Of a stretch of DNA of 64,000 bases, positions 1 to 33,616 are shown piece by piece. The stretch covers positions 172,262 to 236,261 of the forward strand of contig JBEKII010000001.1 in assembly GCA_050011835.1 (NCBI GenBank), in the 5' to 3' direction. The position numbers and the translations under genes were made by a program. The DNA is from Minisyncoccia bacterium (GTDB taxonomy: Bacteria; Patescibacteriota; Minisyncoccia; Phycocordibacterales; Phycocordibacteraceae). Position 1 is the stretch's first letter; each line of letters opens with the position of its first letter. The notes below the pieces were generated by a model. It did not search any database. It was not told the origin of the DNA and saw only the letters and a list, made by a program, of their open reading frames with translations.

Positions 1-819
1 CCGACGGCTTCGGGTAAATCAATGCGTGCGGTAGAGGAGGCATTGACGCATGGAGGTGAAATAATTTCTGTTGACTCACGGCAAGTGTATCGCGGATTGG
101 ATATTGGCACGGAAAAAATAACAAAAGAAGAAATGCGCGGTGTCCCCCATCATCTCATTGATATCCACGACGTGAACGAGACATATTCCGCCGGCGATTT
201 TGTCGCGGATGCAACTCGCCTCATTAAAGAAATTTCTGCGCGCGGGAAACTGCCGATTCTCGTCGGCGGAACACATTTTTATTTTGACGCGCTTCTGAAT
301 GGTCTTCCGGCGGATACTGATGCGAACCCTGCGCTTCGCGCGGAACTTGAAAAACTTCAAACCGAGGAACTTGCGGCGCGGGTCGCGCAGCGCGACCCGC
401 GCCGCGCCGCGAATATTGACCCGAAAAATCGCCGCCGCCTCATTCGCGCACTGGAAATCATTGAAGCACAAGGGAAAGTTCCAATACGAATCTCATCCAC
501 ACCGGCATATGAAATTAAGTGGATTATTATTGATCCGCCGCGCGAAGAATTGCGCGAGCAAATTGATGCGCGACTCATAAACGCTTTTAAACGCGGACTC
601 ATTGAAGAAGTGCGCCGCGTGCGCGAAAAAGTTGGCGACACTCGTTTGAGTGAACTCGGCCTTGAATACAAAATCGTGGGCGAATTTTTACGAGGCGAAC
701 GCGACGAGGCATCACTTTTCCCCTCTCTTTCGGCAAAACTCTGGCAGTACGCGCGGCGTCAGAAAGCGTGGCTTCGCAAACTTATTCCGGCAACACCGTC
801 GCACCAGGACAGAAACTGA
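1..819 (+). CDS. miaA: tRNA dimethylallyltransferase MiaA, 5'-partial (frame open from base 1)
   Basis: Bases 1-21 translate in frame to PTASGKS (P-loop remnant); downstream DSRQVYRGLDIGTEK, HHLID and GGTHFYF motifs typical of MiaA; the M at 22 is internal. Confidence 0.85.
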   Translation, partial: PTASGKSMRAVEEALTHGGEIISVDSRQVYRGLDIGTEKITKEEMRGVPHHLIDIHDVNETYSAGDFVADATRLIKEISARGKLPILVGGTHFYFDALLNGLPADTDANPALRAELEKLQTEELAARVAQRDPRRAANIDPKNRRRLIRALEIIEAQGKVPIRISSTPAYEIKWIIIDPPREELREQIDARLINAFKRGLIEEVRRVREKVGDTRLSELGLEYKIVGEFLRGERDEASLFPSLSAKLWQYARRQKAWLRKLIPATPSHQDRN

Positions 820-1363
820 ATCCGAGACTCTCTCCAGCATACCGTGAATTGACGCTGTTCGGTACACTGACCATATAGTTAAGCTGGCACATTTGGTCCT
901 GCGATACGTCGAGATGTGCCATGAGATACTGCTGCGCTTCTTCGCGCGTCGTCCCAATCGGTTCCTGCAATAGCGTAATGTTAAAATATTGCGTTGCGCT
1001 GATATATTCAATGATATAAGGCGGATTGGCGGTTATCGTCGGATCTGGAACTCCCTCGTTCACATGATAACCGAGGTAATAATAACCGGAATTAATCGGA
1101 TCTTTTGCTGTCGTCGGATCCTTTAAGAAATTATTTGTTTGTACAGTTCCACCACCAGCGGTTGCGATAGGTACCGTTGTTCCTTGTGAAGAAGCCGTGA
1201 CCGTAGTAGTTGTTTGCCCAACCGATCCGGCTACCGGTAGTCCAACTTGTCCATTTTGAGAGTTACTTACTGGCGTTTTGTTATTACTCGCAAACCAGAA
1301 CGCGAGCGTAAAAAGCCCGATAAGTATTACTGCTCCTACTCCTATAAACCAGATTTTATTCAT
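782..1363 (-). CDS. hypothetical membrane-anchored/secreted protein
   Basis: N-terminal TM helix (IWFIGVGAVILIGLFTLAFWF), Thr/Gly-rich linker, no recognisable catalytic motif; convergent 38-nt overlap with miaA end. Confidence 0.4.
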   Translation of the reverse strand: MNKIWFIGVGAVILIGLFTLAFWFASNNKTPVSNSQNGQVGLPVAGSVGQTTTTVTASSQGTTVPIATAGGGTVQTNNFLKDPTTAKDPINSGYYYLGYHVNEGVPDPTITANPPYIIEYISATQYFNITLLQEPIGTTREEAQQYLMAHLDVSQDQMCQLNYMVSVPNSVNSRYAGESLGFSFCPGATVLPE

Positions 1364-1374
1364 AGAGATTTTTA

Positions 1375-2334
1375 TTAGCTACCGCCATATTGCGATACGC
1401 AAGCGACTGCGTTTGGATTCCAATATGTCCCGTCAGGATTTTTCCCCGTCCACGGTTGATAGCCCTGCTTGCCGAACATTATCAAAGCCGTTTGCAGATT
1501 ACACTGAGCATCATTGCACGAGCTCGATATACTGCATGGACTTTGATGATATGCGGAATTAGACCAGTTCCCCGGTTGCGTCGTTATCTGGAATGTACCA
1601 CAGGCGCCGGTTGAACTGTTAGGTGTGTCTGGATTTCCGCTACTTTCTGTCATCGCGATACAAGACATGGCGGTCGCTTGGGCATCACTCAAGGTCATAT
1701 TGAGTGTCTGAGCCGCTTGCTGTATCGCGCTTGTGCTACACGCGGTGTTACCGCTAGAACAAGGTCCAGGTGCCTTGCCAACTTGCGGTCCCACTCCCGC
1801 GCTGGTTACGCCAGCGCCATTTGTGGATTGATTCAATCCGGTACCCACCCCTTTTTGAGGTAAACAAGTTAAAGCTCCTCCGGATGTTATGAGACTTGAC
1901 CAGTTCCGGGCGAATGTTGAGCCATTTGTGCCAGTCGTAAGAACTGCCATCAGAGCATCCACGATAAGCCAGCCGGCGAGCGCGATGACGATGCCGATGA
2001 TGGTATTAAGTAAAACGCCTTTTGCTTTACTGATTGCGCCCGAATTACCCTGACCCACGACGAGAAGAAAGCCCGAGTATGCAATCATAATCGGTGCAAC
2101 GAATAGAAGCACGATTGTGAGGAGAAACTCAATGATGTTATTAATGACCGTAATGACCGCTCCCCAGCCAAGTGCGCATTGAACAACACCGCCGGTCACA
2201 GTATTTGGGACAGTCCATGATGAATCTATGATAGGGCCAAAAAACGGAATCATCGCATGTGCGACGACTGGCAATGCAAGCGAACCGGCCGCAAGCAGAA
2301 ATATAAATAAAGGAACGCGAAAACGCATAACCAT
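1375..2334 (-). CDS. membrane protein: signal peptide + VirB2/TrbC-like double-TM hairpin fused to C-terminal SLT lytic transglycosylase domain
   Basis: Signal peptide then two hydrophobic helices separated by a short GQGNSGAISKAKG loop (pilin/TrbC-like); C-terminal AMSCIAMTESSGNPDT...GACGTFQIT matches the SLT ES...GA.GLMQ signature. Confidence 0.5.
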   Translation of the reverse strand: MVMRFRVPLFIFLLAAGSLALPVVAHAMIPFFGPIIDSSWTVPNTVTGGVVQCALGWGAVITVINNIIEFLLTIVLLFVAPIMIAYSGFLLVVGQGNSGAISKAKGVLLNTIIGIVIALAGWLIVDALMAVLTTGTNGSTFARNWSSLITSGGALTCLPQKGVGTGLNQSTNGAGVTSAGVGPQVGKAPGPCSSGNTACSTSAIQQAAQTLNMTLSDAQATAMSCIAMTESSGNPDTPNSSTGACGTFQITTQPGNWSNSAYHQSPCSISSSCNDAQCNLQTALIMFGKQGYQPWTGKNPDGTYWNPNAVACVSQYGGS

Positions 2335-2404
2335 ATCATACCGCGCCCATCACGGTGCGAGTACGGCTTTCCCCACTGCCCTGTGTCTGCTATCGTTTGA
2401 CTAC

Positions 2405-2475
2405 GGGCCTATAGTTTAGTGGTAAAACAGCGGTCTCCAAAACCGCCGTCCCAGGTTCGAGTCCTGGTGGGCCCG
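2405..2475 (+). tRNA. trnW: tRNA-Trp (anticodon CCA)
   Basis: Cloverleaf read by eye: acceptor GGGCCTA/TGGGCCC, D-arm GTTTAGTGGTAAAAC, anticodon stem GCGGT/ACCGC with loop CTCCAAA (anticodon CCA), T-arm CAGGTTCGAGTCCTG, discriminator G; CCA not encoded. Confidence 0.85.
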
Positions 2476-2480
2476 CTTAT

Positions 2481-2636
2481 TTATTTCTTCGCTTCTTTAA
2501 AGATAACGCGCTTGCGGAGCGTGGGGTCAAATTTTACGAGTTCAATCTTGCGCTCAACGTGTTTTTTATTCTTGCGAGTCCAAATAACGTGATTGGATTT
2601 CGTGGACTTGAGCCGGAGAAGACGGTCTTGAGACAT
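2481..2636 (-). CDS. rpmG: 50S ribosomal protein L33 (51 aa; below ORF-track size cutoff)
   Basis: Manual translation MSQDRLLRLKSTKSNHVIWTRKNKKHVERKIELVKFDPTLRKRVIFKEAKK; T(R/K)KNK..N..(K/R)LEL.K(Y/F)DP..RKH..F.E.K pattern of L33; adjacent to tRNA-Trp as in many bacteria. Confidence 0.75.
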   Translation of the reverse strand: MSQDRLLRLKSTKSNHVIWTRKNKKHVERKIELVKFDPTLRKRVIFKEAKK

Positions 2637-2663
2637 ATAAAAAATGTAACAGAAACTAAGTAT

Positions 2664-5342
2664 TTATGCAATTTCCGCCACTTTTGCGTGCGTCACACGC
2701 GTGGTGCGCTTCTTCACATCAAATTGCGGTTCGCCGTTCTTGATAGAAATCGTCACAGTACCGCCTTCCGTCACGCCGCGGTCAACCATAAGCGAAGCGA
2801 GCGGCGTGAGTATTTTATCTTGAATCGTACGGCGGAGAGGGCGCGCGCCGTACTGCGGGTTATATCCCTTCTCTGCGAGCCATTCGCGCACTCCAGGCGC
2901 GAATGAAAGCGCGATTCGTTTTTGCGAAAGACGCTTTATGACCTCCTCAATTTGATTATCAACGATGCGAGCCAGCGCCTCCTTTGAAAGGACATCAAAG
3001 ATAATGATATCATCCAGCCGATTGAGGAACTCGGGACGGAAATGCTCCTTAAGCGCATCCATCACTTTCTCTTTCGTTTCTTCATAGCGGGATGCTTCGG
3101 TCGCATCGGCAGTGCCGAAGCCGATATGCGCGAGCCGGTCAATGAATTCTCCGCCAATATTGCTGGTCAACACGACAATCGTATTCTTAAAATTGACCTT
3201 GCGTCCCTTACTGTCCGTGAGATTGCCGGAATCCAGTACTTGCAAAAGGATATTGAACACTTCCGGATGCGCCTTTTCAATTTCGTCAAAGAGAACCACC
3301 GCATACGGGCGATGCCGGATGCGCTCGGTCAAAGTGCCGGCTTCCTCATAACCAACATAGCCCGGGGGCGCGCCGATGAGTTTGGCGACCGAATGCTTCT
3401 CCATAAACTCGCTCATATCCACGCGCACGAGCGCATCGTCATCATTAAACATAAATTCCGCGAGTTTTTTGGATAGTTCGGTTTTCCCCACGCCGGTAGG
3501 ACCGAGGAAAAGAAAAGAGCCGATGGGGCGGTTGGGGTCGCTGATGCCAACGCGCGAACGCTTTACGGCATCCGCAACTTTTTTCACCGCAATATCTTGG
3601 CCGATAATGCCGCGCTTGAGCGTCTCCTCCATGCGGCTTAACTTCGCGACTTCCTCTTCAAGCATGCGCGCGACGGGGATACCCGTCCAACGCGAGACGA
3701 CCGCCGCAATGTCCTGCTCGGCCACTTCTTCATTCAATACGCGCCGCGATTTCTGCAGCGTTTTAAGGCGCTTTAATTTCGTTTCCAAATCTTTCTGCAG
3801 ATGAGGAATCTTGCCATAGCGAATTTCCGCGACCGTACCGAGGTCGGCGGCAGCCTCGGCGTTGTCCGCCTGTATCTTCAACGCTTCCATCTCGGTCTTA
3901 TCGGAGCGAATGCCGACAAGCACTTCCTTCTCGTTTTTCCATTTAAGTTCAAGTTCGCTGGTCTTTTCCTTCAAATCGGCTACTTCTTTTTCAATGTCTT
4001 TAATGCGCTCTTTAATCTCTTTGCTGCGTTCACCCTCAAGGTCCTTCTGGAGCGCCTGCCGCTCAATTTCTAGGCGGCGAATCTTGCGGTCGGCCTCTTC
4101 AAGCAGAGGCGGTTTGTTTTCAAGCGCGATGCGCAGTCCCGATGCGGCCTCATCAATGAGGTCAATGGCTTTGTCTGGCAAAAATCGATCACTAATATAT
4201 CGCGAAGAGAGTTCAACGGCGGCAACGATGGCGCCATCGGTAATGCGCACGCCGTGGAAAAGTTCGTACTTGTCGCGCAGTCCGCGAAGAATGGCGATGC
4301 CGTCCTCAACCGAGGGCTCTTGAACGAACACCGACTGGAAGCGGCGCGTCAGCGCGGCATCCTTCTCAATATATTTCTGATATTCCTTCAGCGTCGTCGC
4401 ACCGATAACGCGAACTTCGCCGCGCGAAAGCGCGGGCTTCAGCATGTTTGACGCGTCCAGTGAACCCTCGGCGCCGCCGGCGCCCACCAACGTATGAAGT
4501 TCGTCCACAAAGAGAATGGCCTTCCCCTCCGCCCGCTCAACTTCTTTCATCACATTCTTCATCCGCTCTTCAAACTCGCCGCGGTATTTCGTGCCGGCAA
4601 TCATAAGCCCGAGGTCAAGAGAGAGGAGCTCCTTGCCTTTCAGTGATTCAGGAACATCATTCGCCGCCATGCGCGCCGCGAGACCTTCAGCGATTGCGGT
4701 TTTCCCGACGCCCGCCTCACCGATGAGAACCGGATTATTCTTGGTGCGGCGCGCGAGTATCTGGATGACCCGATTAATCTCACTGTCACGACCGATAACC
4801 GGATCAAGCTTATTTTCGGCGGCGAGCTTAGTAAGATTGCGCGAATACTTGGCAAGTGCACGAAACTGTCTCGGCTCCGCAGCCTGGCCGTCTTTAGAAT
4901 TTTTCAATTCCTTAAGGACGGCGGCGGCGGCTTGCTGGGTTATTGAAAAACGCGCAAAAATGTCCGCGGCCCCGCCCGGATGTTCAATAACGGCGAGAAA
5001 AAGATGTTCGGTGCCAATGAACGTGTCGTTCATGCGCGCCGCAATTTTCCCCGAGGCCTCAAGCGCCTGCGCGAGGTCGGGCGTGAGATAAATCTGATAG
5101 GCAGGCGAGAGTACTGTCGCGCTCTCGGGCGTCTCAAGATGCTCAAGCACGGCATCGGCAAGCATGTTGGTATCAATCTCCATGCGGTCAAGCATAGAGA
5201 AAACGAGTGATTCTTCCTGAAGTACAAGAGCGGCGAGCAAATGAAGCGGCGATACGTGATTCTGCCCGCGCTCTATCGCGAGCTCGTGCGCGCGGCGTAC
5301 GGCCTCTTTCGCTTTGGTAGTGAAATTGTTAAATGGAGGCAT
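2664..5342 (-). CDS. clpB: ATP-dependent chaperone ClpB
   Basis: Clp N domain, two AAA+ modules (GEAGVGKT and GPTGVGKT Walker A), long coiled-coil middle domain between them, 892 aa. Confidence 0.9.
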
Positions 5343-10788: not shown

Positions 10789-11373
10789 CTATTTGAGTGC
10801 GAGACCGCCGTCACCCTTAACTATCGCCGTGAGGTCGGCTTGCGTCTTTGGGAGGTGGTTCGGGTTTGTGATATTGACAAAACCAACGACGCGCACATTA
10901 GTAGTGCAGACGCCGAGTACCGTACTGGCGTTTTCTATACCGTCCGCCATTGCGTAGTTTGTCGTCGTGCTGAAAAGAAGGTCAATGCGATCGGTGTAAC
11001 GTGCATTCATCGTGTCAGCGATGACGCGATAACCGACAAGCGGCTTCACAATACCGTAGCCGCACAAACCCCCCGAGACTGATGAGCTGTCAATTTCAAT
11101 AATAGTACCAAAAGGAAACTTGCTCGCGAGATTTTGCGAGCGCGCCGCGACGGTCTCCGGATTTGAATATGTGCCAGAGGCGGTTACAAAAGGATGGTCG
11201 CTTGTTTGTTCCGGAACGGCGTTATAGGCGGTAAGTGTTACCGCGTAACTCGGCAATGCCGGCGTAATGGGCGTGCTCGTTGAAGCGGGCGGCACAAGCG
11301 CGGCGCCTGAAAAAAGAAAAAACCCCATAAGGGTTCCAAGAATAGGCATAAAATAATTTAGCGAAATAGCCAA
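10789..11373 (-). CDS. secreted 3D-domain (MltA-like barrel) protein
   Basis: Signal/TM N-terminus; TAYNAVPEQTSDHPFVTASGTYSNPETVAARS matches the 3D domain signature. Confidence 0.55.
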   Translation of the reverse strand: MAISLNYFMPILGTLMGFFLFSGAALVPPASTSTPITPALPSYAVTLTAYNAVPEQTSDHPFVTASGTYSNPETVAARSQNLASKFPFGTIIEIDSSSVSGGLCGYGIVKPLVGYRVIADTMNARYTDRIDLLFSTTTNYAMADGIENASTVLGVCTTNVRVVGFVNITNPNHLPKTQADLTAIVKGDGGLALK

Positions 11374-13057: not shown

Positions 13058-14260
13058 ATGGTATTGTTAAAAGAATTTGATATGAATCTTTCTTTCTTGG
13101 TAAACATTGTTGCACTGCTCTTTTCTTTTTTCGTCATCGGAGCGGTGCTCGGCGCCGTTTTCTCTAAGCCAGTACGAAAAAAACTCGTTGCATTCTTACG
13201 CTTTGAGTATCTTCCGCGCCTCTTGCTCAATAAATCCTCGTGCAATCCAATCATCAAGCCGGGAACTCATCCTTGGACTGCAGAAGCGGTCATGAATCCG
13301 GCGGCGATTGTCCTTGATGACCGAACCCATCTCGTCTTCCGCGCGATCGGCATGGATGGCGTATCGCGACTCGGTTATGCCAGTAGCGCGAACGGTATCG
13401 TTTTTGACAAGCAATTGCCGTACCCTATCTACATCGCACAAAGCCCCCGGAGGATTCCAAGTTACCGGCGCCGATTCTCACCAGTCATGTATCCTTCAGG
13501 CGGCAGCTGGGGTGGATGTGAGGACCCACGCATGGTTGTCATAGAAGGGCGCGTGTATATCACCTTTAATATGTTTGATGGTTGGGATTTCATCCGTGTC
13601 TCCACGATCTCAATTGCAGAAAATGACTTTATGACTGAACGATTTTGGAAATGGGACGGTCCGTATCTCCTCTCGCCGCCACGACAAATCCATAAAAATT
13701 GGGTTCTCTTCCCAGAAAAAATTAGTGGGAGATTCGCCATTCTCCATAGCATTGCTCCCGAAATAGAAATCGCTTATCGCGATTCAATTGAGGATATCGG
13801 CACAGAAGAACCTTTCATTGAAAGCTGGGTCGGGGCGCGCTTCGATCTTCCGGAGCGAGAAAATACCTGGGACAGTTTCGTCCGAAATCCTGGGCCCCCG
13901 CCGATACGGACCGACCGTGGATGGCTTCTTTTTTATCACGCGTTTCATAAATCCGACCGAGAGGCATCAATCGGATATCGTATTGGCGCAATGCTTCTCG
14001 ACTTCGCTGACCCGACCAAAGTACTCTATCGCTCTGCCGCACCCGTCATTTCGCCTGAAGAAAATTACGAAAATCATGGCAATAAGTTCGGCGTCGTCTA
14101 CGCATGCGGCGCGGTCGTCCGTGATGGCACGCTCTTTGTTTATTACGGCGGTTCTGATAAAGTCGTGTGCGTTGCGACCGCGCCCTTAGATGCTTTCCTC
14201 GATGCGCTCGCTGCGGGCAGCCAACCGCGGCTGAATGAGCAAAATGCCCAAACTCCCTGA
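13058..14260 (+). CDS. GH130-family glycoside phosphorylase (mannoside-phosphorylase-like), membrane-anchored
   Basis: N-terminal TM; NPAAI, GCEDPRMV, and C-terminal YACGAVVRDGTLFVYYGGSDK motifs of the GH130/DUF377 5-bladed propeller family. Confidence 0.7.
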   Translation: MVLLKEFDMNLSFLVNIVALLFSFFVIGAVLGAVFSKPVRKKLVAFLRFEYLPRLLLNKSSCNPIIKPGTHPWTAEAVMNPAAIVLDDRTHLVFRAIGMDGVSRLGYASSANGIVFDKQLPYPIYIAQSPRRIPSYRRRFSPVMYPSGGSWGGCEDPRMVVIEGRVYITFNMFDGWDFIRVSTISIAENDFMTERFWKWDGPYLLSPPRQIHKNWVLFPEKISGRFAILHSIAPEIEIAYRDSIEDIGTEEPFIESWVGARFDLPERENTWDSFVRNPGPPPIRTDRGWLLFYHAFHKSDREASIGYRIGAMLLDFADPTKVLYRSAAPVISPEENYENHGNKFGVVYACGAVVRDGTLFVYYGGSDKVVCVATAPLDAFLDALAAGSQPRLNEQNAQTP

Positions 14261-15278
14261 CGTGACGCAAGAATCCAGAGCATATATTCAACACATTGGG
14301 AAAGTCATCGAAAATGATGCCCGTTTTAAGTATGTTATGGCCTTAACGCTTAATCCGCGTTCTGGAAACCGGGAAGGGGTCATCAGATGTATTACGAGCA
14401 GAAAAGGGAAAGAAGGCGTCGCTGGTCAAATTGACAGAAGCGTATTGCATAAAGTGAAAGGCAAATCCCTCGAGCACTTTGAGATCGGAGAAAAAATTCG
14501 CATCAAGCTTCAGGAAAAGATTATTAAAAAGTTTTCTAGGAAAAATATTGATTTCTTAGGACTGGAGGATCCAGATATTTGGGTTGATGAAAAGACAAAT
14601 CTCATACATTTATATTTCACTATACCTTTAATCGCTAAGAAGAAGACATGGATTCATCTCGGCCATGCTTTTGGAAAAGATTTGGATAATCTGAATATGA
14701 CAATGCCAGTGTTAATGGCGGGTAGGAGAGGAGGTGCAAAAGAAGTTAGTATTGCGCCGCTAAATAAAAAAGGATCGAGATACAATCTTGTTGAATCCTC
14801 GGACAAAATAAAAGATACCTATTTCTCAGTTGTTCGAACAGCTATCGCTAGAGATATGGGCAAACCTTGGAAATTTGGAAAAATAGTTTTTCATCCCGGG
14901 AGACAATCTGCTCGCTGGATTGCCGGACATGCGTCGCCCGGGCCATTTCTTCCTAGTACATTTATCGATATCGGTCCCGGTAGACGAGTAGGGATCATGA
15001 ACGGGTGTGGGGCTAATAAAATAATCGGAGGGGAAACAAAGTATGGGACTTTCTCGATCGGTCTCTTTATATACGATTATGAAAAAGGAAAAATCGATTG
15101 GGTTTCTCCGAAACCTTTTATCCAAGATAGCCAGGCAGGCAAGGTGAGAGCCATTACGTTTGCGAGCCAATTTGTGGAAACGAATCCGGGCAAAGGAATT
15201 CTTTATGCACATGTCAATGACTCTTTTGTACGCGCATATACGTTGTATGCTGAAGGCATTCAAGCGTTGCTTCCTTAA
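14235..15278 (+). CDS. divergent GH130-like beta-propeller protein
   Basis: GLEDPDIW aligns with GCEDPR box; C-terminal ...ILYAHVNDSFV like GH130 end; Lys-rich and AT-richer than neighbours; 26-nt overlap with upstream gene. Confidence 0.45.
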   Translation: MSKMPKLPDVTQESRAYIQHIGKVIENDARFKYVMALTLNPRSGNREGVIRCITSRKGKEGVAGQIDRSVLHKVKGKSLEHFEIGEKIRIKLQEKIIKKFSRKNIDFLGLEDPDIWVDEKTNLIHLYFTIPLIAKKKTWIHLGHAFGKDLDNLNMTMPVLMAGRRGGAKEVSIAPLNKKGSRYNLVESSDKIKDTYFSVVRTAIARDMGKPWKFGKIVFHPGRQSARWIAGHASPGPFLPSTFIDIGPGRRVGIMNGCGANKIIGGETKYGTFSIGLFIYDYEKGKIDWVSPKPFIQDSQAGKVRAITFASQFVETNPGKGILYAHVNDSFVRAYTLYAEGIQALLP

Positions 15279-15283
15279 TTATT

Positions 15284-17200
15284 ATGTTCGTCATCCGCCG
15301 AGAACCAAGTAATCCCATCCTCGCGCCACAACGCGAACGGCCGTGGGAATCGGTCGCAACGTATAACCCTTCTGCGGTTCGTACTCCCGAAGGTGTGCGG
15401 CTTTTTTATCGCGCGCTTGGGAATCCCAATGTGCTTCAAACGCCGACCGCTGAATTATCAAGTATCGGCACAGCTTTTGCTGAAGACGGCGTTCATTTCC
15501 ATTCGCGCCAACAGGTAATTATTCCAGAGGAATCGTGGGATGTGTTTGGGTGCGAAGACCCGCGCGTTACCTTTTTTGAAGGAAAATGGTACTGCTTCTA
15601 TACCGCGCTCGGCGGCTACCCTTTCGGTCCCGATAATATCAAAGTCGCTCTCGCTATCGGCGACACACCGGACCATTTTACAGAGCGCCACCTCATCACG
15701 CCATTTAATGCAAAAGCAGCGACGCTTTTCCCCGAACGCATTGATGGCGATATCGTGCTCCTTTTAACCACACATACCGACTGGACTCAAGAATATCCGC
15801 GACCAACTATCGCGCTTGCGCACGCGAGGCGAATAGAAGATTTTTTTGATACCGATTATTGGCACCGCTGGCATGACCATCTTGCCGATCATGCAATTCA
15901 TGAACTGCGCCGCGATGACGGCGACCATGTTGAAGTCGGCGCATCGCCTTTATTGACCGAAGACGGCTGGTTACTTATCTATTCTTATATCCAGAATTAC
16001 TATGACGAGCAAAAACGCATTTTTTCAATTGAAGCCGCGCTTCTCAACCGCGATAATCCGCAAAAGCTTATCTCGCGTACCGAGTCCTTTCTCGTACCAC
16101 AAGAGTTTTACGAGGAATACGGCCTCGTACCGCATATCGTCTTCCCCACGAGCGTAACAGTAACTAACGATACCTGCCTTGAAATTTGGTATGGCGCGGC
16201 CGATACTGTTTGCGCCAAGGCGAACGTGAAGCTTCCCGACCTTCTGCGCGCGCTTGACCCCGAACGGCCAGCGCGGACTTTCACACGCGCCGCGAACAAT
16301 CCCATCCTCGCGCCTCGCGGTGAAGGATTTGAAAATCGTGAAGTGATAAACGCCGCCGCTGTTGAGCTTAATGGCTTGATATACCTTCTCTACCGCGCGA
16401 TGGACGCCGCCAGTACTTCCACCATCGGGCTTGCGACCTCAAAAGACGGACTCACCATTGACGAGCGGCTGCCCGAACCTATTTATATCCCGCGCCAGGA
16501 ATTCGAAAAGAAACACGGAAGCCCTACCGGCAATTCTGGGTGCGAAGACCCGCGTATCGTGCGCATCGGCGACACGCTCCATATGACATACACCGCATAC
16601 GACGGCGTCCATGCGCCTGCAGGGGCGATCTCGTCAATCGGCGTTGACGACTTCCTCGCGCGGCAATGGCAGAAGTGGAACGCGCCTTTCATCCTGACGC
16701 CAGAAGGCGTCGACGATAAAGACCTCGCGCTTCTGCCTGAAAAAATCGGCGGGAATTACCTGCTTTACCATCGCATTAATAATCAAATCTGCGCCGACCT
16801 CTTGCCTGACCTCGTCTCGGGTAAACGCGCGAGCCGCGGCATAAAAATTATAGGGCCGCGCCTCGGCATGTGGGACGGCGCCAAGGTCGGCAGTACGGCA
16901 CCGCCGATTAAAGTCGGTGACAAATGGCTGATGATCTACCATGGCATCTCACGCCACGCGACGTATCGTCTCGGCGCCGCACTTCTCGGCGCTGACGGAC
17001 TCACGGTCCTTGCGCGCACCGCCGACCCAATCTTTGAACCATTGGAGAAATACGAGAAAGAAGGCGCCGTTCCGAATGTTGTCTTCTCTTGCGGCATCGT
17101 AGTGCGCGATGACACCGTCTTCCTTTATTACGGCGGCGCCGATAAAGTCCTCGGCGTCGCAACCGCCTCGCTCGCTCATATCGTTGACGCGCTTTCTTAA
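15284..17200 (+). CDS. tandem-duplicated GH130-family glycoside phosphorylase (two GH130 domains)
   Basis: Two repeats each with NPILAP... and GCEDPR(V/I) boxes and ...VVFSCGIVVRDDTVFLYYGGADKV end. Confidence 0.7.
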   Translation: MFVIRREPSNPILAPQRERPWESVATYNPSAVRTPEGVRLFYRALGNPNVLQTPTAELSSIGTAFAEDGVHFHSRQQVIIPEESWDVFGCEDPRVTFFEGKWYCFYTALGGYPFGPDNIKVALAIGDTPDHFTERHLITPFNAKAATLFPERIDGDIVLLLTTHTDWTQEYPRPTIALAHARRIEDFFDTDYWHRWHDHLADHAIHELRRDDGDHVEVGASPLLTEDGWLLIYSYIQNYYDEQKRIFSIEAALLNRDNPQKLISRTESFLVPQEFYEEYGLVPHIVFPTSVTVTNDTCLEIWYGAADTVCAKANVKLPDLLRALDPERPARTFTRAANNPILAPRGEGFENREVINAAAVELNGLIYLLYRAMDAASTSTIGLATSKDGLTIDERLPEPIYIPRQEFEKKHGSPTGNSGCEDPRIVRIGDTLHMTYTAYDGVHAPAGAISSIGVDDFLARQWQKWNAPFILTPEGVDDKDLALLPEKIGGNYLLYHRINNQICADLLPDLVSGKRASRGIKIIGPRLGMWDGAKVGSTAPPIKVGDKWLMIYHGISRHATYRLGAALLGADGLTVLARTADPIFEPLEKYEKEGAVPNVVFSCGIVVRDDTVFLYYGGADKVLGVATASLAHIVDALS

Positions 17201-17201
17201 A

Positions 17202-17957
17202 ATGAAAACCATTCCTCGCGTAATCATTTTTGACCTTGACGGCACGCTGACCGAAAGCAAGCAGCCGCTTACTCCGGAAGTGGGAGTGTGGCTTGCGCGC
17301 TTGGTGCTTAAGATGCCAGTTGCTGTGATGAGCGGCGGTTCCTATGCACAATTCCAAAAGCAATTTTTAGGCAATATGCCCAAAGATGCTGATTACAAAA
17401 ATCTATATCTTTTCCCCGCAAGCGCCACGCAGTGCTACGCATGGAAAGACGGCAGTTGGCGCATTCTCTATAACAATCTTTTCACTCCTGAAGAAAAATC
17501 TCATGTATTGCAAGCGCTTGCGGAGTCCCTCAAAGAAACGGATCTCGGTCATCCGCCGCAACTCTGGGGCGAACAAATTGAGGATCGCGGGTCGCAAATC
17601 ACTTGGTCGGCGCTCGGGCAACAGGCGCCTGTTGAAACGAAAAAGGCATGGGACCCGGACAGGGAAAAACGTTTGCCGCTCCAGAGAGCTCTTCTTCGGC
17701 GGATTCCTGATTTCTCAATTCGTATCAATGCGACGACTTCCATCGACATAACACGCAAGGGCATTACAAAAGCATATGGCATACGACAATTTTCAGAAAT
17801 TATTGCGACACCCGTTTCTGCGATGCTTTACGTCGGTGACGCTCTTTTCCCGGGGGGCAATGACGAAATCGTGAAAGAAACGGGGATTGAAACACAACAA
17901 GTCGATGGCCCGGACGAAACTGTAGAAATAATAGAAGGACTGCTTACCCTCGCATAA
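17202..17957 (+). CDS. HAD-IIB hydrolase, eukaryotic-type phosphomannomutase (PMM)-like
   Basis: IFDLDGTLT (DxDGT nucleophile motif) at N-terminus; C-terminal YVGDALFPGGNDEIV matches PMM2 FGDKTMPGGNDHEIF. Confidence 0.6.
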   Translation: MKTIPRVIIFDLDGTLTESKQPLTPEVGVWLARLVLKMPVAVMSGGSYAQFQKQFLGNMPKDADYKNLYLFPASATQCYAWKDGSWRILYNNLFTPEEKSHVLQALAESLKETDLGHPPQLWGEQIEDRGSQITWSALGQQAPVETKKAWDPDREKRLPLQRALLRRIPDFSIRINATTSIDITRKGITKAYGIRQFSEIIATPVSAMLYVGDALFPGGNDEIVKETGIETQQVDGPDETVEIIEGLLTLA

Positions 17958-20717: not shown

Positions 20718-21635
20718 CTACTGCGTGATGATGAGTGTACGACGGATCGCATCAAATGTCGCGAGAAGTTCTGGCTGATTGAATTCTTGCACCATGCCTG
20801 CTGGATAATTTTCAATAACGCCGTAGTGGATGAAATACCGCATCGCGATGCACGGATTCGTGCCCGGAAGCGCATAAACCGTTTCTTCATAGCGATTGCC
20901 CGCAGCCGCGCCGGTTGACGAAGCGACCAAATAAGTAACGTCGCCATCAGTAAGCGTGCTCGTGGCTATATTCTGCGGGTCCAAGAAGAGAGTTGCGGCG
21001 CATCCACCTGCCGGCGGATTGGTCTTAGAGATTTCTTCAACGCTTATATAAGAACCGGGAGAGAGATTGGTGCCCGTCGCCACCGATGCGGGAATGGTGA
21101 ATTTGATGCCGGAGATATCTTTGTCGGGACCGAGTTCCTGATATTGATACGATTCGTCAACGGTATAATCAGCCGGCAGGCGAATAGAAAAACCATACGT
21201 GCTGTTTGAATAAATTTGCGGAAGATCCTGTCCAGCGGGATTGGGCGCCACCGCGACACAGCCGATGTAGTTTTTTTCCTGATTGTTTTCCAGAACAAGA
21301 ACGCCGTTGCCTTTACTCCAAAACACGAAAGACTCGTCGGTATTCGCATAACGGACCCCGTCGGCAGAGATGGTCTGCGCGAGCGTCATGGTGCTTCCAT
21401 CGGAGAACGTGAGCGCAACGCTTCCGCTCGGAATCGGCGGCTGACCGGGGCCAGGGGCGGGTTTGGTCACGCCTTGATAATACGTTGCCGTAATGGTCTT
21501 TCCACCGTTACAAGAATATAAGACGGTAGTAATCGGCTGACTTGAAACCTGCGAGGGAGTATGCGTGAGCCACAACGCGAGAATCGCGACGACAACAATA
21601 ATGATAAGAACGATAATTTTTGTGTGGGTAGTCAT
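20718..21635 (-). CDS. membrane-anchored protein with MliC-like (lysozyme-inhibitor-type) domain plus C-terminal unknown domain
   Basis: TM then VLYSCNGGKTITATYYQ...VALTFSDGSTMTL..SADGVRYANTDESFVFWSKGNGVLV pattern of MliC. Confidence 0.45.
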   Translation of the reverse strand: MTTHTKIIVLIIIVVVAILALWLTHTPSQVSSQPITTVLYSCNGGKTITATYYQGVTKPAPGPGQPPIPSGSVALTFSDGSTMTLAQTISADGVRYANTDESFVFWSKGNGVLVLENNQEKNYIGCVAVAPNPAGQDLPQIYSNSTYGFSIRLPADYTVDESYQYQELGPDKDISGIKFTIPASVATGTNLSPGSYISVEEISKTNPPAGGCAATLFLDPQNIATSTLTDGDVTYLVASSTGAAAGNRYEETVYALPGTNPCIAMRYFIHYGVIENYPAGMVQEFNQPELLATFDAIRRTLIITQ

Positions 21636-22288
21636 AGGTCTAGTATATATCGAAATGATTTACCGACAACTGCCCCGATAACCGAACCAATAATGGCGCC
21701 CGCGACGAATTCAGAAAACCAATGAATATTGGTGGAAACGCCGATGCCGATGTAGAGAGCGACGAGAAGCGCTCCGTACTTTATATATCGATTGCTACGG
21801 TACAGCATATAAAGCGCGACCGCCACCGCGAAGGCAACGGTCGTGTGCGTCGACGGCCAGCCCCAGAATGCCCCATGTCGCAGAAAGCCGAATTCAAATT
21901 GCCGGCTGATGTCAACGAGATTTTGCGAATGGAGCGGCGGCTGAACGCGGCCGGTAAATATTTTATAAAAAGATGAAATGAAGAGGCCGAAAAGCCCTGC
22001 CTCAGTGACGGCGTAAGCGGTATATATCGTGCGGATATTCTTGCGAACTTTTCCGACGATAAAAAGAATTATCGGGAGCAGTATCGGCACAATGCCGCCC
22101 ACAATAGCTGCCGGGAAGAGAATATTTTGGAGCCATACTTCCCGAGTGTGGGTAAAGTAGTACCAATCGAAATCCGTCACGACAATGATATACGTCAGCG
22201 CAACCGCAAGCAGTTGCCATAAAATATTTTTCCCCTTATAGCACCTAGCGATATCGGCGGCAAAACTTTTTAATATTTTGCCCGTCAT
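21632..22288 (-). CDS. PAP2-like integral membrane protein
   Basis: Six TM-like segments; WPSTHT (PSGH-like) and NIHWFSE (HxxxD/E-like) boxes. Confidence 0.4.
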   Translation of the reverse strand: MTGKILKSFAADIARCYKGKNILWQLLAVALTYIIVVTDFDWYYFTHTREVWLQNILFPAAIVGGIVPILLPIILFIVGKVRKNIRTIYTAYAVTEAGLFGLFISSFYKIFTGRVQPPLHSQNLVDISRQFEFGFLRHGAFWGWPSTHTTVAFAVAVALYMLYRSNRYIKYGALLVALYIGIGVSTNIHWFSEFVAGAIIGSVIGAVVGKSFRYILDL

Positions 22289-22338
22289 GGTGCAAGTATA
22301 TCATTCTGTGGTAGTGTGGGCGCAGAAGATTTTATGAG

Positions 22339-22587
22339 ATGAAAGGAGGTGGGATCGTGCCACGTAAGCGATGCTACATACATTCATGCCTCTTAAAGGT
22401 GAGGTATTCGAGCAAAGATGAGGCTCTAGCCTCTATAGAAGACCTCGCCAGGAAAAACAAGAATGACATTCTCGGGGCCTATCATTGCAGCTTTTGCGAC
22501 GGATGGCACGTGGGTCACCTGTCTAAAAAGCGCCGATCGGTTTTTCTTGCCGCCCAATGGGTAAAAATGGCGAGGAGACCAGCTTGA
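22339..22587 (+). CDS. hypothetical small Cys/His-containing protein
   Basis: CYIHSC...YHCSFCDGWH possible Zn-ribbon. Confidence 0.25.
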   Translation: MKGGGIVPRKRCYIHSCLLKVRYSSKDEALASIEDLARKNKNDILGAYHCSFCDGWHVGHLSKKRRSVFLAAQWVKMARRPA

Positions 22588-22613
22588 AAAGCCGCCTTCC
22601 TAAAGGAAGGCGG

Positions 22614-22796
22614 CTACATATTTTTATTACGGAATAACTTTTTTCTTCTAGCCCACAAAAATTTTATTAAAAAGATTATGAACAAAACCAAGAGAATCGG
22701 CCAAAAAAGTCCAATCATAACGGGAAACCCCAAAAACAAGGCCTTGAGATTTTCCCAAGTGAAAACCTGACCGAGTATAGTAAGAGAAGCATTCAT
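22614..22796 (-). CDS. hypothetical small membrane protein
   Basis: 60 aa, single hydrophobic helix. Confidence 0.2.
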   Translation of the reverse strand: MNASLTILGQVFTWENLKALFLGFPVMIGLFWPILLVLFIIFLIKFLWARRKKLFRNKNM

Positions 22797-22831
22797 AGAG
22801 GATAATTTCTCTTTTATATTATGCTGCCTGT

Positions 22832-23824
22832 TTAAGAACCGATTGCAACGGAATAATTATTAACCGATACTTGTACCTTCGGCGCATTTCTGGCGTTGAA
22901 GAAAAGCAATCCGAGTATGATAAGCAGTAAAAGCAATCCTCCGGCGATGATTTCTATAAACTGGACGCCTATCTTCACGACAATCGCGATAATGAGCAGT
23001 ATGAAAATAATGATGGCCAGAACGGAGAGAATATGAGTGACGGTGGATGTCGGAGATGTAGAAACCAACGCAAAGAAATTCGCGATTGATGATGAGATTG
23101 CAGATATTGCGGGAACTTGCGCTTGCGTGCCAAGCACCGCGGCCACCGGTGCTACAGCGCCTTTTTCAGGCGATACAGAGGGCGAAGGTGCTACTGTTGC
23201 CACCTTTGGCGCACCGGCAGCCGTAGCGCTCCCCTGTGACGAGGTGATTTCGGGAGAAGCGAAGAACTGCACGACAAATGTCGCCTCCTTGCCTTGATAC
23301 ATTCCATTGGCAGTGCCGATTCCTATTTGCGTGTATTGCGGCTTTACGATATTCGCGTGATGTTCTGGTGATGCCATCCATGCGCTCTCAACGGCCGACG
23401 AGTCGGTGAAGTCCACGGCGAGGTTTTCGCCCGCGTATTGGTACTTATATCCGACTAGATTGAGCCAATGCCACGGGTCTTTGCCGTCGGGACTGATATG
23501 TGCGAAGTATCCTTTCGTCGCCATATCGTTTGCGGCATCCTGCGCGGCTTGTGCGAGCTGCGCGTTCTCGCTCACGGCAGGGACATCATTTGCGGCACGA
23601 TCATCATTCGTGAGGGCTACGAGGGCACCGGGAAGCACCGCTCCGAGGAAGCTCGTATGCGGAAATACGAACTTGATCTGTGTGAGATACGCTCCTTCAA
23701 GAACTACAATCGCAAGCGCGATAACTGCTACCGATGCGACACGAAAGATGTGCGGCCTATATCCGTTATGTTTATGGGGAAAGAAATAGTGATGCACGCG
23801 ATGAGGAAGCGAGTGCTTACGCAT
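22832..23824 (-). CDS. CAP/SCP (YkwD-like) domain membrane protein
   Basis: N-TM, GYFAHISPDG...YAGENLAV...PEHHANI CAP motifs, C-terminal TM segment. Confidence 0.6.
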   Translation of the reverse strand: MRKHSLPHRVHHYFFPHKHNGYRPHIFRVASVAVIALAIVVLEGAYLTQIKFVFPHTSFLGAVLPGALVALTNDDRAANDVPAVSENAQLAQAAQDAANDMATKGYFAHISPDGKDPWHWLNLVGYKYQYAGENLAVDFTDSSAVESAWMASPEHHANIVKPQYTQIGIGTANGMYQGKEATFVVQFFASPEITSSQGSATAAGAPKVATVAPSPSVSPEKGAVAPVAAVLGTQAQVPAISAISSSIANFFALVSTSPTSTVTHILSVLAIIIFILLIIAIVVKIGVQFIEIIAGGLLLLLIILGLLFFNARNAPKVQVSVNNYSVAIGS

Positions 23825-23883
23825 ATTGAGCTAACAATAACAAACAATCCCGCTTCGGGCGGGACTGTTTACTCACACTTGGC

Positions 23884-24813
23884 TTAATTGCTGTTTCCGA
23901 GATCTGCCTCAACTTTGGCGATAGTCGCTTGATCAACTCCAAAGGATTGAAGTATCGATATGATTGCATTTACTTGCGCGGTCGTAAGACCAGCACCGCC
24001 GGAGCCAGAAGAAGAGGTCGTCTCCGGAGTTGTCGGTACAACGCCCTTATTCAAGAGAGCGAGCGTGAGCGGACCGACATAGCCCGTTTGCGGCAGGTTA
24101 TTCGCCTTTTGAAAGGCAATTACCGCCGCCTTCGTGAGTTGGCCGAAGTAGCCAGAAATCGTACCGGAATAGAATCCTTCGTCCGTGAGGAACTGCTGGA
24201 GCGCCGTTACATCAGCGCCGCGCGAGCCAACCGTGAGATTTTTGGTGAAGTTGTATGCGGCGGCACCGAGCACCTGACCTTGATGGGAAGTTGTGGTCGT
24301 TATGGCCGGTGTAGTGACCGGTACAAAGACCGGACTTATAGAACCACTAGAACCACCTCCGCCAGAGCTACCTAAAGGAACCGGTGTAAGGGTTGTGAAG
24401 GCGGATGTAGGTGTAATGGTGTATGTGTACGACGCGACGGTTGAGAACTGACCATCAGAATAGCATGAGATTGCCTCAATAGTCATTGTCGAACTCACGG
24501 GAATTGGACTGGAATAGACTGTTCCTGTAGATCCTGCAGAACAACCCAACAGTGTTGATCCATCAGTCCCGTAATGGATGCTTGATGCTCCATCGGCGGT
24601 CAAGGTCACGCTTTGCGCTGAATTGTATGAACCAGCGGCAGGAGTTGCTACCGGTGGTGCAATAACGACGCCGTTAACGGTGGCGCCAAGAGTGGCATTA
24701 AGACCTGTAGACAAGGTCCCTGTTACGGTATCAGCCAGTGCAACATTACTAATCGCAAACAGCCCAATCACGGCTGCCGCGAATACAGATGATTTCAGGA
24801 TAATTTTGTTCAT
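23884..24813 (-). CDS. secreted protein with Ig-like N-domain and peptidoglycan-binding (PG_binding_1) domain
   Basis: Signal peptide; LTVGSRGADVTALQQFLTDEGFYSGTISGYFGQLTKAAVIAFQ matches PG-binding repeat. Confidence 0.6.
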   Translation of the reverse strand: MNKIILKSSVFAAAVIGLFAISNVALADTVTGTLSTGLNATLGATVNGVVIAPPVATPAAGSYNSAQSVTLTADGASSIHYGTDGSTLLGCSAGSTGTVYSSPIPVSSTMTIEAISCYSDGQFSTVASYTYTITPTSAFTTLTPVPLGSSGGGGSSGSISPVFVPVTTPAITTTTSHQGQVLGAAAYNFTKNLTVGSRGADVTALQQFLTDEGFYSGTISGYFGQLTKAAVIAFQKANNLPQTGYVGPLTLALLNKGVVPTTPETTSSSGSGGAGLTTAQVNAIISILQSFGVDQATIAKVEADLGNSN

Positions 24814-24825
24814 AGATTTTCAGGA

Positions 24826-29593: not shown

Positions 29594-29617
29594 CATGCTC
29601 TAAAAAGGAGAAGGGCG

Positions 29618-29821
29618 ATGAAAAATTTAATTGTGCTGATATTAATGATAGGTTTGGCAGGTCTGAGTTTGGTTGCTTGTGCAGCTTGTGCAAATATCTC
29701 CTTAAAGATTTATCATCCAATCGCTGGATCATTGCCACCAAATGTCGGCTACAATGACTGCAGCGCATCTGAGATGTGGAAGTGTTACTATCCACCTGGA
29801 ATCGTGATCGCAGTATGGTGA
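29618..29821 (+). CDS. small Cys-rich putative lipoprotein
   Basis: AGGAGA RBS; signal peptide with lipobox-like SLVAC; 5 Cys in 45-aa mature part. Confidence 0.45.
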   Translation: MKNLIVLILMIGLAGLSLVACAACANISLKIYHPIAGSLPPNVGYNDCSASEMWKCYYPPGIVIAVW

Positions 29822-30063
29822 GGCTTTGGGCACCTGATCGAACAAGAAACACGATTGAGTGCCCTTTTTATTTAGGTCATAAATCGCTGATGCGTTTGAA
29901 GCCCGAGATACCTTTATTTCGTCTCAAAACTTAGGTTCTAACGTCGACCGATATACAGAGCAAAAAATTGACAGTATTTTTATATCGTGATATACAAGAA
30001 GACAGACCGCGACTCAGGCTCATTTGTACAAATTCATTCCAAACTGATTCAAGGAGGTATGCC

Positions 30064-30375
30064 ATGCTTAAAGCAATTGCAACCACGCCCTGGTACTTCC
30101 GCTTCTTACCAAACTTCTTCTGGATGAAACCGTTCGTCGAGAAAGTCCGGATCGTGGACATGGCGAAGCGCGATCTCCAGCCGATTTCATCAGGTGATCG
30201 GCAGCGATATACCAGTTCGTACGCATATGCTGTCTGGGTCAAGACAAGTCACGGCAACCTTTACCTGGAGGTATCGAAAGAGGTCTATCACCGCTTAAGG
30301 CGGAACGACCAGTTAATTGTTCGCTACCAATGTGGTCGCCGAACGGAGAGACTCAGAGGTCATATCGCGCGTTAA
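30064..30375 (+). CDS. hypothetical protein (103 aa)
   Basis: Strong AAGGAGG RBS 6 nt upstream of ATG 30064. Confidence 0.4.
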   Translation: MLKAIATTPWYFRFLPNFFWMKPFVEKVRIVDMAKRDLQPISSGDRQRYTSSYAYAVWVKTSHGNLYLEVSKEVYHRLRRNDQLIVRYQCGRRTERLRGHIAR

Positions 30376-30422
30376 CCGCTACCTCGATGAGACAGGAAGC
30401 TAAACTTCTATCTCATGACAGA

Positions 30423-30493
30423 GGGGCGGTTTTCTGTTTCTACACATTCTACACAAAACATATTTGAACATCTTCCAGCCAGCGGAGCTGACA
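30423..30493 (+). repeat. junction element copy A
   Basis: GGGGCGGTTTTCTGTTTC...TTTGAACATCTTCCAGCCAGCGGAGCTGACA. Confidence 0.55.
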
Positions 30494-30521
30494 GTTCATA
30501 AAATCTATGGTATATTAGGAA

Positions 30522-30752
30522 ATGATGAGAACACGGGATTTTGATAAAGAGCGCAGTGAGCAGTCACATTCACTCGCTGACTTTTTGAATGTCTATAACG
30601 AGAACCTTTCTCCCGCCTTTCCTCGGGCGTCAATTGCCTTGCTTAAAGAATTTAAGAACACTCATCAGAATCTCTTTAAGTCGAATGGGGTGTGGTCGTT
30701 GGACCTTCACCGGAAAAAGGTCATGGATTGGCTACATCCTCGCTCAACATAG
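30522..30752 (+). CDS. hypothetical protein (76 aa)
   Basis: ORF only; preferred over overlapping 30589-30936 ORF whose product is low-complexity. Confidence 0.25.
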   Translation: MMRTRDFDKERSEQSHSLADFLNVYNENLSPAFPRASIALLKEFKNTHQNLFKSNGVWSLDLHRKKVMDWLHPRST

Positions 30753-30799
30753 TTCGAACTGTCCCGACCGCGCTAGCGGAGACCAACTTTCTGGTCTGA

Positions 30800-30910
30800 C
30801 CGCCACACTTGAGGAATCCGCCTACCTGGGCCATATTTCCTCAGTGGGCGGTTTTCTCTTTTCATACCGAATAGGTTTGAACATCCTCTATCCAGCGGCA
30901 ACTCTAACGC
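30800..30910 (+). repeat. junction element copy B
   Basis: CCGCCACACTTGAGG...CCTCAGTGGGCGG hairpin + TTTTCTCTTTTC + GGTTTGAACATCCTCTATCCAGCGGCAACTCTAAC; right end overlaps RelE 3' end. Confidence 0.55.
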
Positions 30911-32223: not shown

Positions 32224-32226
32224 CTA

Positions 32227-33283: not shown

Positions 33284-33289
33284 TTGGAT

Positions 33290-33544: not shown

Positions 33545-33616
33545 GCGTCCATAGTACCATCACGAGAAGAGTTGGAAGATCATAAACCACTTTTATAGAG
33601 GGCGGCTTTCTTACCT

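Follow-up and report, generated by a model that had tools for sequence, protein, structure and literature searches.

A pilin-like membrane hairpin combined with exchangeable, wall-hydrolase-like heads in Paceibacteria

Much of bacterial diversity belongs to the Patescibacteria, which apparently live attached to host cells, and the one genetically tractable Patescibacterium needs a type IV secretion system (T4SS) with an array of VirB2-like pilins. Here we analysed a 64-kb stretch of the chromosome of a Minisyncoccia bacterium (contig JBEKII010000001.1; the whole stretch is called the window below), which encodes a 319-aa protein (1375..2334, minus strand) in which a pilin-like membrane hairpin is fused to a lysozyme-like domain. 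The hairpin, together with its signal peptide and a Cys-bearing neck, forms a conserved module (the carrier) that is found in front of several unrelated C-terminal domains (the heads), and a 193-aa partner gene follows the fusion gene at most related loci. In Paceibacteria, part of the "pilin" family is therefore a carrier of predicted wall hydrolases, and carrier, heads and partners behave like an effector-immunity system. The locus bears on how Patescibacteria breach a cell wall, be it their own or that of a host. Both domains are known as Pfam families and so is the lineage-specific "pilin" family, while the use of the pilin module as a swappable hydrolase carrier, the two- or three-gene cassette with an orphan partner and a sister pair resembling Tae3 and Tai3 appear to be new; neither the fusion nor the cassette was described in the literature that we searched on PF18895, PF18896 and pilin/VirB2 plus peptidoglycan hydrolase in Patescibacteria. 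As a practical caveat, PF18895 matches should not be counted as pilus subunits before they have been checked for enzyme heads.

Architecture of the fusion protein

The 319-aa protein is encoded by an ATG-started open reading frame (ORF) with its stop codon at 1375-1377, and the true start is probably Met3 (nucleotide 2328), as homologues begin at the third residue. With 538 homologues at E<=1e-3 in a 90%-clustered collection and 3,937 among representatives at 50% identity, of which 79 reach E<=1e-30, this is no chance ORF but a real gene. All named sources of these homologues are Patescibacteria (Kaiserbacteria, Adlerbacteria, Paceibacterota/Minisyncoccota and Parcubacteria), and scanning one genome per GTDB species yielded 52 related loci, again all from Patescibacteria. 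A protein identical to the fusion from Met3 onwards (P0001, 100% identity, 317 aa) is encoded on the JGI metagenome contig 3300037993 Ga0427919_0000068, and some database records already name such proteins "pilin". Inside the window the fusion is single-copy, since hidden Markov models (HMMs) of hairpin, head and partner detected no further copy there. A promoter and terminator scan of window positions 600-2800 gave counts at chance level. Relatives of 445-657 aa also exist (L024, L029, L033, L041, L042, L046, L049, L056, L059 and L060, and among proteins P0131, P0166, P0203 and P0215), with 130-390 extra residues N-terminal to the hairpin that lack any Pfam match; in the locus ORFs, this extension may partly be a start-codon artefact.

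A sequence-only reading of this DNA had proposed a signal peptide, a transmembrane (TM) hairpin with a short loop and a C-terminal Cys-rich head, and hydropathy, charge and an AlphaFold model of the whole fusion (mean pLDDT, the per-residue model confidence, 84) agree with this layout. The signal peptide (aa 1-27, MVMRFRVPLFIFLLAAGSLALPVVAHA followed by M; 2254..2334, minus strand like all parts of the protein) has a hydrophobic h-region and two N-terminal Arg and ends in AHA at aa 27, after which it is presumably cleaved; Pro22 is invariant and Ala27 is 97% conserved. It is followed by a pre-helix segment (aa 28-56; 2167..2253), predicted to be extracytoplasmic, with an IPFFGPI motif and the 97% conserved Cys53, and then by the hydrophobic helical hairpin (aa 57-133; 1936..2166). 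The two modelled helices, both hydrophobic, span aa 57-93 (37 residues) and aa 98-133 (36 residues) and thus exceed the length required of a plain TM anchor; the loop at aa 94-104 (GQGNSGAISKAK) is short and contains Lys, with a helix break at 94-97 in the model. Signal peptide, paired hydrophobic helices and short polar to basic loop together correspond to the architecture of the Patescibacterial T4SS pilin family PF18895. If the loop lies in the cytoplasm, as in VirB2-type pilins, both hairpin ends and the head would be outside the cell, a location that fits the ten Cys of the protein and the presence of a DsbA-like gene in the window. Behind the second helix come a neck with the invariant Trp145 and with Cys157, and a flexible linker rich in Gly, Ser, Thr and Asn (together aa 134-189; 1768..1935; pLDDT <50 at aa 167-180). 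All family members sampled carry one or more Cys ahead of helix 1 and a single Cys right behind helix 2, and we infer that a disulfide between Cys53 and Cys157 may staple both ends of the hairpin.

The proposed kinship of the hairpin with TrbC/VirB2 pilins held at the level of the family, while the window protein itself stayed below the cut-off. PF18895 (T4SS_pilin) matched aa 62-128 of the window protein with 20.7 bits (E 4e-4; gathering cut-off 26.6 bits) and 67 of 75 relatives at E<=0.01 (best E 1.9e-11), and other carrier fusions reached 35-39 bits. PF04956 (TrbC/VirB2) had no match in the window protein and matched eight of the 75 relatives at E<=0.01 (best 2.6e-5). Moreover, an HMM of the hairpin region finds stand-alone PF18895 genes of ~96 aa in related genomes (E 2e-10). 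Together, the family-level profile matches and the HMM result support homology of the hairpin with the Patescibacterial "VirB2-like pilin" family well. Such pilins, e.g. SEML1_0014-0019 of Southlakia epibionticum, come from the same lineage and share the signal peptide, the two long hydrophobic helices and the short basic loop in addition to family-level sequence homology. Unlike them, the fusion continues beyond helix 2 for ~190 residues (linker and enzyme head), its hairpin is flanked by one conserved Cys on either side, and virB4 is not encoded alongside. Pilus polymerisation has not been reported for any Patescibacterial PF18895 protein, stand-alone pilins included.

The head (SLT_3-type, aa 190-319; 1378..1767) was modelled alone with 26 homologous sequences at a pLDDT of 94.5 and a predicted template modelling score (pTM) of 0.89. 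It holds eight of the ten Cys, which are 89-100% conserved, and the motifs MTESSGNP and GACGTFQI, on which the sequence-only reading had based its assignment, are among the most conserved columns. Glu230 of the TES motif (codon at 1645-1647, minus strand, confirmed by translation), the predicted catalytic acid, is invariant in all 75 sequences, and conservation of >=80% is reached by no other acidic residue of the head. In the alignment, its counterpart in hen lysozyme is Glu35, and the position equivalent to Asp52 is occupied by Ala244 (93% conserved). Of the claimed SLT domain, the lysozyme-like fold with a single putative catalytic Glu was substantiated, but the Pfam profiles remained sub-threshold in the window protein: PF18896 (SLT_3) scored 20.1 bits (E 9e-4, aa 215-296; cut-off 27 bits) and PF01464 (SLT) 16.1 bits (E 8e-3, aa 223-265; cut-off 21.3 bits). 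Among the 75 relatives, PF18896 matched 68 (best 1.1e-8; P0215 scores 27.9 bits) and PF01464 40, both at E<=0.01, and the Rpf-type transglycosylase-like domain matched 15.

Comparison of the head fold with known structures listed values of 8.9 for a Bombyx c-type lysozyme, 8.8 for Pseudomonas Slt, 8.6 for DslA, 8.5 for both Slt70 and MltF, 7.6 for MltE, 7.1 for EtgA (associated with a type III secretion system) and 6.8 for RpfB. As these values are similar across glycosidase families, the fold is lysozyme-like and no nearer to one family than to another. A search of the PDB with the family profile finds insect c-type lysozymes (3cb7, E 1e-4), and membership in GH22 was considered on this ground and rejected, given the Ala at the Asp52 position and a non-significant hhalign E of 0.32 against hen lysozyme. 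The missing Asp52 equivalent also means that the head is not GH22-like in mechanism, although it shares the Glu-Ser motif and G-x-x-Q-I in the same register with both GH22 lysozymes and GH23 enzymes (Slt70, MltE, MltF, EtgA), and although the four disulfides of c-type lysozymes amount to the same number of eight Cys. What we find is a lysozyme-like fold whose putative catalytic Glu is part of an E-S motif and is not joined by a second catalytic carboxylate, as in GH23, in a version that unlike the GH23 and GH22 enzymes is small (130 residues) and Cys-rich. Single-Glu chemistry is normal for lytic transglycosylases (GH23), and the arrangement in the head fits that of lytic transglycosylases and goose-type lysozymes rather than hen-type chemistry. 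The protein is very probably a tethered extracytoplasmic peptidoglycan glycosidase.

Further along the window (20718-27720, minus strand) lies a run of secreted or cell-wall genes, which includes a 305-aa protein with an MliC domain (c-type lysozyme inhibitor, E 6e-11), a PAP2 phosphatase, a CAP/SCP protein, a protein with PG_binding_1 and CHB_HEX_C domains and a surface protein of 964 aa that has MBG_2 and Ig-like domains. An MliC-type inhibitor in a genome with a c-type-lysozyme-like head is suggestive.

Exchangeable heads and the partner gene

The carrier is not tied to this particular head. Among 263 relatives, 182 combine the hairpin with the head described here, 77 have the hairpin and a different tail, and four consist of the head only. 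Over the carrier (aa ~3-175), the window protein shares 40-74% identity with proteins that end in unrelated tails, and BLAST similarity to other-head proteins mostly stops at query residues 158-179 (median 175), just past Cys157. A conserved N-terminal module followed by variable C-terminal domains is the build of polymorphic toxins. Confirmed alternative heads are Peptidase_M15_4, VanY and a Tae3-like amidase; several others have H...D or H.D motifs that recall LAS peptidases and found no confirmation in Pfam or the PDB, and the divergent head of P0100 had no PDB match. The tail of P0140 is closely related to Tae3, a peptidoglycan amidase effector of the type VI secretion system (T6SS) (PDB 4hz9, E 1e-17; entry identity from PMC10318531). 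At 17 loci, a further carrier fusion occurs as a third gene within 3 kb, usually straight after the partner, with the same kind of hairpin (the 35-39 bits on PF18895 mentioned above) and Peptidase_M15_4, VanY or heads of no assigned family.

The partner gene (782..1363, minus strand, 193 aa) begins 11 nt past the stop codon of the fusion, and its 3' end overlaps the convergent miaA (22-819). It encodes an N-terminal TM anchor (aa ~4-25), a linker rich in Ser, Thr, Gly and Gln and a conserved extracytoplasmic domain of ~115 aa with two invariant Cys (Cys159 and Cys185). Synteny lends strong support to the suggestion that this neighbouring secreted protein is a partner of the fusion: 49 of the 52 species loci contain it, 48 of them directly downstream of the fusion on the same strand, and of the three that lack it, L012 is truncated by the end of its contig. 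Across three syntenic loci it is 47-72% identical. Neither Pfam nor the PDB yielded anything similar to it, even when a profile of 40 sequences was used, and it shows no similarity to known immunity proteins; its bitopic build alone hints at a possible VirB8/NTF2-like fold. Physical cooperation between partner and fusion enzyme is probable, and that the partner acts as an inhibitor of the enzyme is close to an even call, which we lean slightly against.

Three sister loci (L065, L066 and L067) share the same chromosomal slot beside miaA and are informative in this respect. At L065, a divergent head of no assigned family that does not match the head HMM is accompanied by a correspondingly divergent partner (E 3e-19); L066 has a head without an assigned family and no partner; and at L067 a Tae3-like amidase head adjoins a convergent DUF3828 gene, also without the partner. 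The partner is likewise absent after the third-gene peptidase fusions, and from this pattern its presence tracks head type. Tai3, which confers immunity to Tae3, belongs to DUF3828 (bioRxiv 10.1101/2025.03.19.644130). The DUF3828 protein of L067 is built like the partner in the window, with a TM anchor, a Pro/Ser/Thr linker and a small domain, and the Tae3-like fusion beside a Tai3-family gene looks like effector-plus-inhibitor logic.

The resemblance to effector-immunity pairs and polymorphic toxins such as Tae3-Tai3 of the T6SS thus comprises a conserved N-terminal module, variable C-terminal peptidoglycan-hydrolase heads and a small extracytoplasmic protein encoded beside the hydrolase. Comparable pairs are the X-Tfe/X-Tfi of Xanthomonadales, which are T4SS-delivered wall hydrolases with immunity partners. 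Unlike Tae3-Tai3, there is no T6SS here, the N-terminal module is a membrane hairpin instead of a secretion signal or a PAAR/VgrG-type adaptor, the partner in the window is unrelated in sequence to known immunity families, and the co-variation comparison does not point to the head in particular. Furthermore, the fusion locus is core and syntenic, unlike sporadic polymorphic toxins.

Candidate mechanism and its alternatives

We tentatively propose that the fusion is a Sec-exported surface enzyme. After cleavage of the signal peptide, its VirB2/PF18895-type hairpin would sit in the cytoplasmic membrane with both ends outside, possibly held together by the disulfide, and the flexible linker of ~55 residues would keep the disulfide-rich lysozyme-fold head outside the cell, where it could cut the glycan strands of peptidoglycan by means of the single catalytic Glu230. 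The enzyme would be co-transcribed with the membrane-anchored partner, a cognate binding or inhibitory ("immunity-like") protein that restrains it, and the pair would belong to a Paceibacteria-wide polymorphic family with one carrier (signal peptide, hairpin and neck) and interchangeable peptidoglycan-hydrolase heads. The carrier might couple these enzymes to the T4SS or pilus apparatus of Patescibacteria, a step that we cautiously favour, so that peptidoglycan is opened at the site of cell-cell contact, either in the host wall or as a passage for the pilus. Taken as a whole, this scheme of an effector with its inhibitor acting at contact sites falls a little short of an even chance; that the function of the fusion depends on a T4SS or pilus is, on the present analysis, possible but would sooner surprise us than not.

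An argument for such a coupling comes from Southlakia epibionticum, the only Patescibacterium with genome-wide genetics, in which an essential T4SS locus adjoining dnaN encodes VirB4, PrgI, VirB6 and six PF18895 pilins, but also a protein that combines two lysozyme-like domains with a cysteine-peptidase domain, and a protein with a DD-peptidase (Hedgehog/M15-type) fold (PMC10633639). The PF18895 module, the lysozyme fold and the M15 peptidase are separate there and fused in Paceibacteria, which provides a Rosetta-stone-type argument for a functional link. In a survey of 3,035 genomes, PF18895/VirB2-like genes were found near virB4 in 1,135 of 1,948 Patescibacteria assemblies (~58%), VirB1 homologues were mostly missing, hydrolase fusions went unmentioned and PF18895 proteins were counted as pilins (PMC12102498). 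Like the fusion, VirB1 of diderms, TraG of pIP501, PrgK of pCF10 and SEML1_0006/0007 of Southlakia are membrane-associated glycosidases of lysozyme or SLT type; monoderm T4SS hydrolases also come with peptidase or amidase activities, and in the Paceibacteria cassette the lysozyme fusion is often accompanied by an M15 or VanY fusion. Unlike these T4SS hydrolases, the fusion is anchored by a pilin-like hairpin instead of a plain TM segment and has a dedicated small partner, and the cassette splits the activities over separate genes outside a recognisable T4SS operon.

Several observations weigh against the proposed scheme, and above all against its T4SS component. The genomic context check named in the sequence-only reading came out negative: no T4SS, type IV pilus or competence gene occurs in the 64-kb window or in its flanks of ~8.6 and ~9.1 kb (~82 kb in all), and none of the large ORFs of the window, all of which are accounted for, is VirB4, VirD4, VirB6, PilB/T/C or ComEC. 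The fusion thus has the muralytic fold of VirB1-type enzymes without their location in a T4SS cluster, and it is not encoded together with virB4, virB6 or prgI. No VirB4-like cluster was detected among the large ORFs within 10 kb on either side of the 52 loci, where Pfam was run on the recurrent large-ORF clusters and on five large singletons only; these singletons turned out to be unrelated enzymes or a defence island. The only nearby ATPase of the VirB4/TrwB superfamily is a DUF87/TrwB-like gene at L065 alone. All Pfam scores of the window protein are below the gathering cut-offs, the search of the PDB with the family profile returned no solved VirB2, TraA or TrbC chain, and the fold match of the hairpin is non-specific, as the search gave many generic helical hairpins. 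A C-terminal load of ~190 residues per subunit would presumably be hard to pack into a VirB2-type filament. Lastly, a mirror-tree comparison over 36 loci correlated partner identity with the carrier (r 0.49, partial 0.43) more than with the head (r 0.29, partial 0.16). Head-specific co-evolution of the partner is therefore unsupported and mildly opposed within the lysozyme-head set, and it is the carrier that the partner tracks more. As no T4SS genes were found nearby, what ties the fusion to type IV secretion is homology and the fusion parallel with the Southlakia locus, and given this context we regard the fusion as a possible, not an established, component of cell-wall-piercing machinery.

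Two side observations concern pilin-like and ATPase genes near related cassettes. About 10 kb upstream of the cassette at L063 (6326-10291; GCA_021802705.1), an SBP_bac_1 gene is followed by six consecutive small genes, five of which have PF18895; the first has a Cys-rich repeat region before its hairpin, and the 96-aa member is 70-80% identical across many Paceibacteria. No VirB4 was found within a further 10 kb of this array. At L065 (3165-8415), ~4 kb upstream of the sister cassette, a 928-aa protein has DUF8128 and a weak DUF87 match, and its Walker A region shows weak similarity to the coupling protein TrwB (E 0.07), while an 819-aa protein beside this ATPase has no similarity to anything; the two occur together at this locus only.

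The absence of a secretion ATPase nearby speaks for a rival account in which the fusion is a core autolysin acting in cis, a "space-maker" that remodels the cell's own wall for growth, daughter-cell separation or the insertion of envelope-spanning machines, similar to VirB1, with a regulator as partner and a hairpin that is a mere membrane anchor of pilin ancestry. We consider this account plausible, if somewhat doubtful. Cells can have dedicated inhibitors of their own lytic enzymes, as with Ivy/MliC-type inhibitors and lytic transglycosylases, and a gene that is present in a single copy in the window and that holds a vertically conserved housekeeping position in species with orthologues of 26-66% identity also fits a core autolysin. 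Anchoring in the membrane combined with varied catalytic domains is likewise seen in the T4SS-associated hydrolases of monoderms (PMC12102498). On the other hand, a single TM helix would be enough for anchoring, yet the whole module of signal peptide, hairpin and Cys-bearing neck is kept while the heads are swapped, and among these heads is a close relative of an antibacterial effector of the T6SS, next to which a homologue from the corresponding immunity family is encoded, a pattern more weapon-like than housekeeping.

Two further explanations are far less probable. The lack of an Asp52 equivalent would be compatible with an inactive lysozyme-fold domain that binds peptidoglycan or glycan as an adhesin on a membrane or pilus carrier, but across 75 sequences Glu230 and the ES and G-x-F-Q-I motifs show little or no variation, a single Glu is what lytic transglycosylases normally use, and the heads of sister proteins come from enzyme families (M15_4, VanY, Tae3-like), so that this reading is highly improbable. 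Even less credit, next to none, is given to a remnant of a phage lysis cassette, in which a holin-like two-TM segment became fused to an endolysin: the combination superficially recalls holin/endolysin pairs and there is a weak PHROGs match to the lysozyme-bearing region of tape-measure proteins (E 7e-4), but no endolysin or holin PHROG was matched, no phage genes lie around the locus, the chromosomal position is conserved across 52 species, the signal peptide appears cleavable and the hairpin is homologous to PF18895.

Within the effector scheme, the most far-reaching version would make the PF18895 hairpin itself the delivery module, with the fusions as enzyme-bearing minor subunits of a T4SS pilus or as membrane cargo extracted by a T4SS, and with the adjacent anchored proteins as self-protecting immunity factors. 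We think this unlikely. If true, however, interchangeable wall-degrading heads would be carried to the surface of the host cell, and this would be the first VirB2-type pilin to serve as a carrier of polymorphic effectors that act against bacteria or breach the host. The T4SS and pilin arrays of Patescibacterial episymbionts, essential but so far unexplained, would thereby also gain a concrete role.

Chromosomal surroundings

The conserved neighbourhood of the cassette reads ClpB, L33, fusion, partner, miaA, (AhpC), ParB, RelA/SpoT and TopA, and the clusters of large ORFs that make it up recur in 20-36 of the 52 loci. In the window, a tRNA-Trp(CCA) gene predicted by ARAGORN (2405-2476, plus strand) lies between rpmG (2481-2636, minus strand) and the fusion gene and is antiparallel to both. 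The rest is an ordinary segment of a small-genome Patescibacterial chromosome, with miaA, ClpB, a cysteine desulfurase, two GH130 phosphorylases, a PIF1 helicase, surface proteins, a MacB-type ABC exporter, hisS, rpoD, dnaG, rpoB/C, trmD, RNase R and SMC; the left flank (~8.6 kb) encodes ParB, RelA/SpoT, TopA and SerRS, and the right flank (~9.1 kb) DnaE and GyrB.

A few other features of these chromosomes deserve mention. A predicted exported protein of 194 aa (10789-11373, minus strand), whose gene belongs to the syntenic block upstream of ClpB, had no Pfam match even at E<=1. The two GH130 genes (beta-1,4-mannooligosaccharide phosphorylase family; 13058-17957), one of which encodes 638 aa with two stretches matching the GH130 profile, are separated by an unannotated 347-aa ORF and followed by a gene for a PMM/HAD-type phosphatase, an arrangement that resembles a small gene cluster for mannoside utilisation in a reduced genome. 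Window positions 29600-33550 have a lower GC content (0.46-0.47) and small ORFs without Pfam matches; an overlapping ORF pair on the minus strand (30904-31182 and 31173-31412) looks, by eye, like a RelE/ParE-type toxin with a ribbon-helix-helix antitoxin. Directly upstream of the cassette at L035 (770-9958), genes for a protein with AAA_15 and an OLD-type TOPRIM domain, a UvrD-family helicase and a large serine recombinase were found, and the domain content of the TOPRIM and UvrD genes suggests a Gabija-like pair in a defence island that was inserted beside the cassette.

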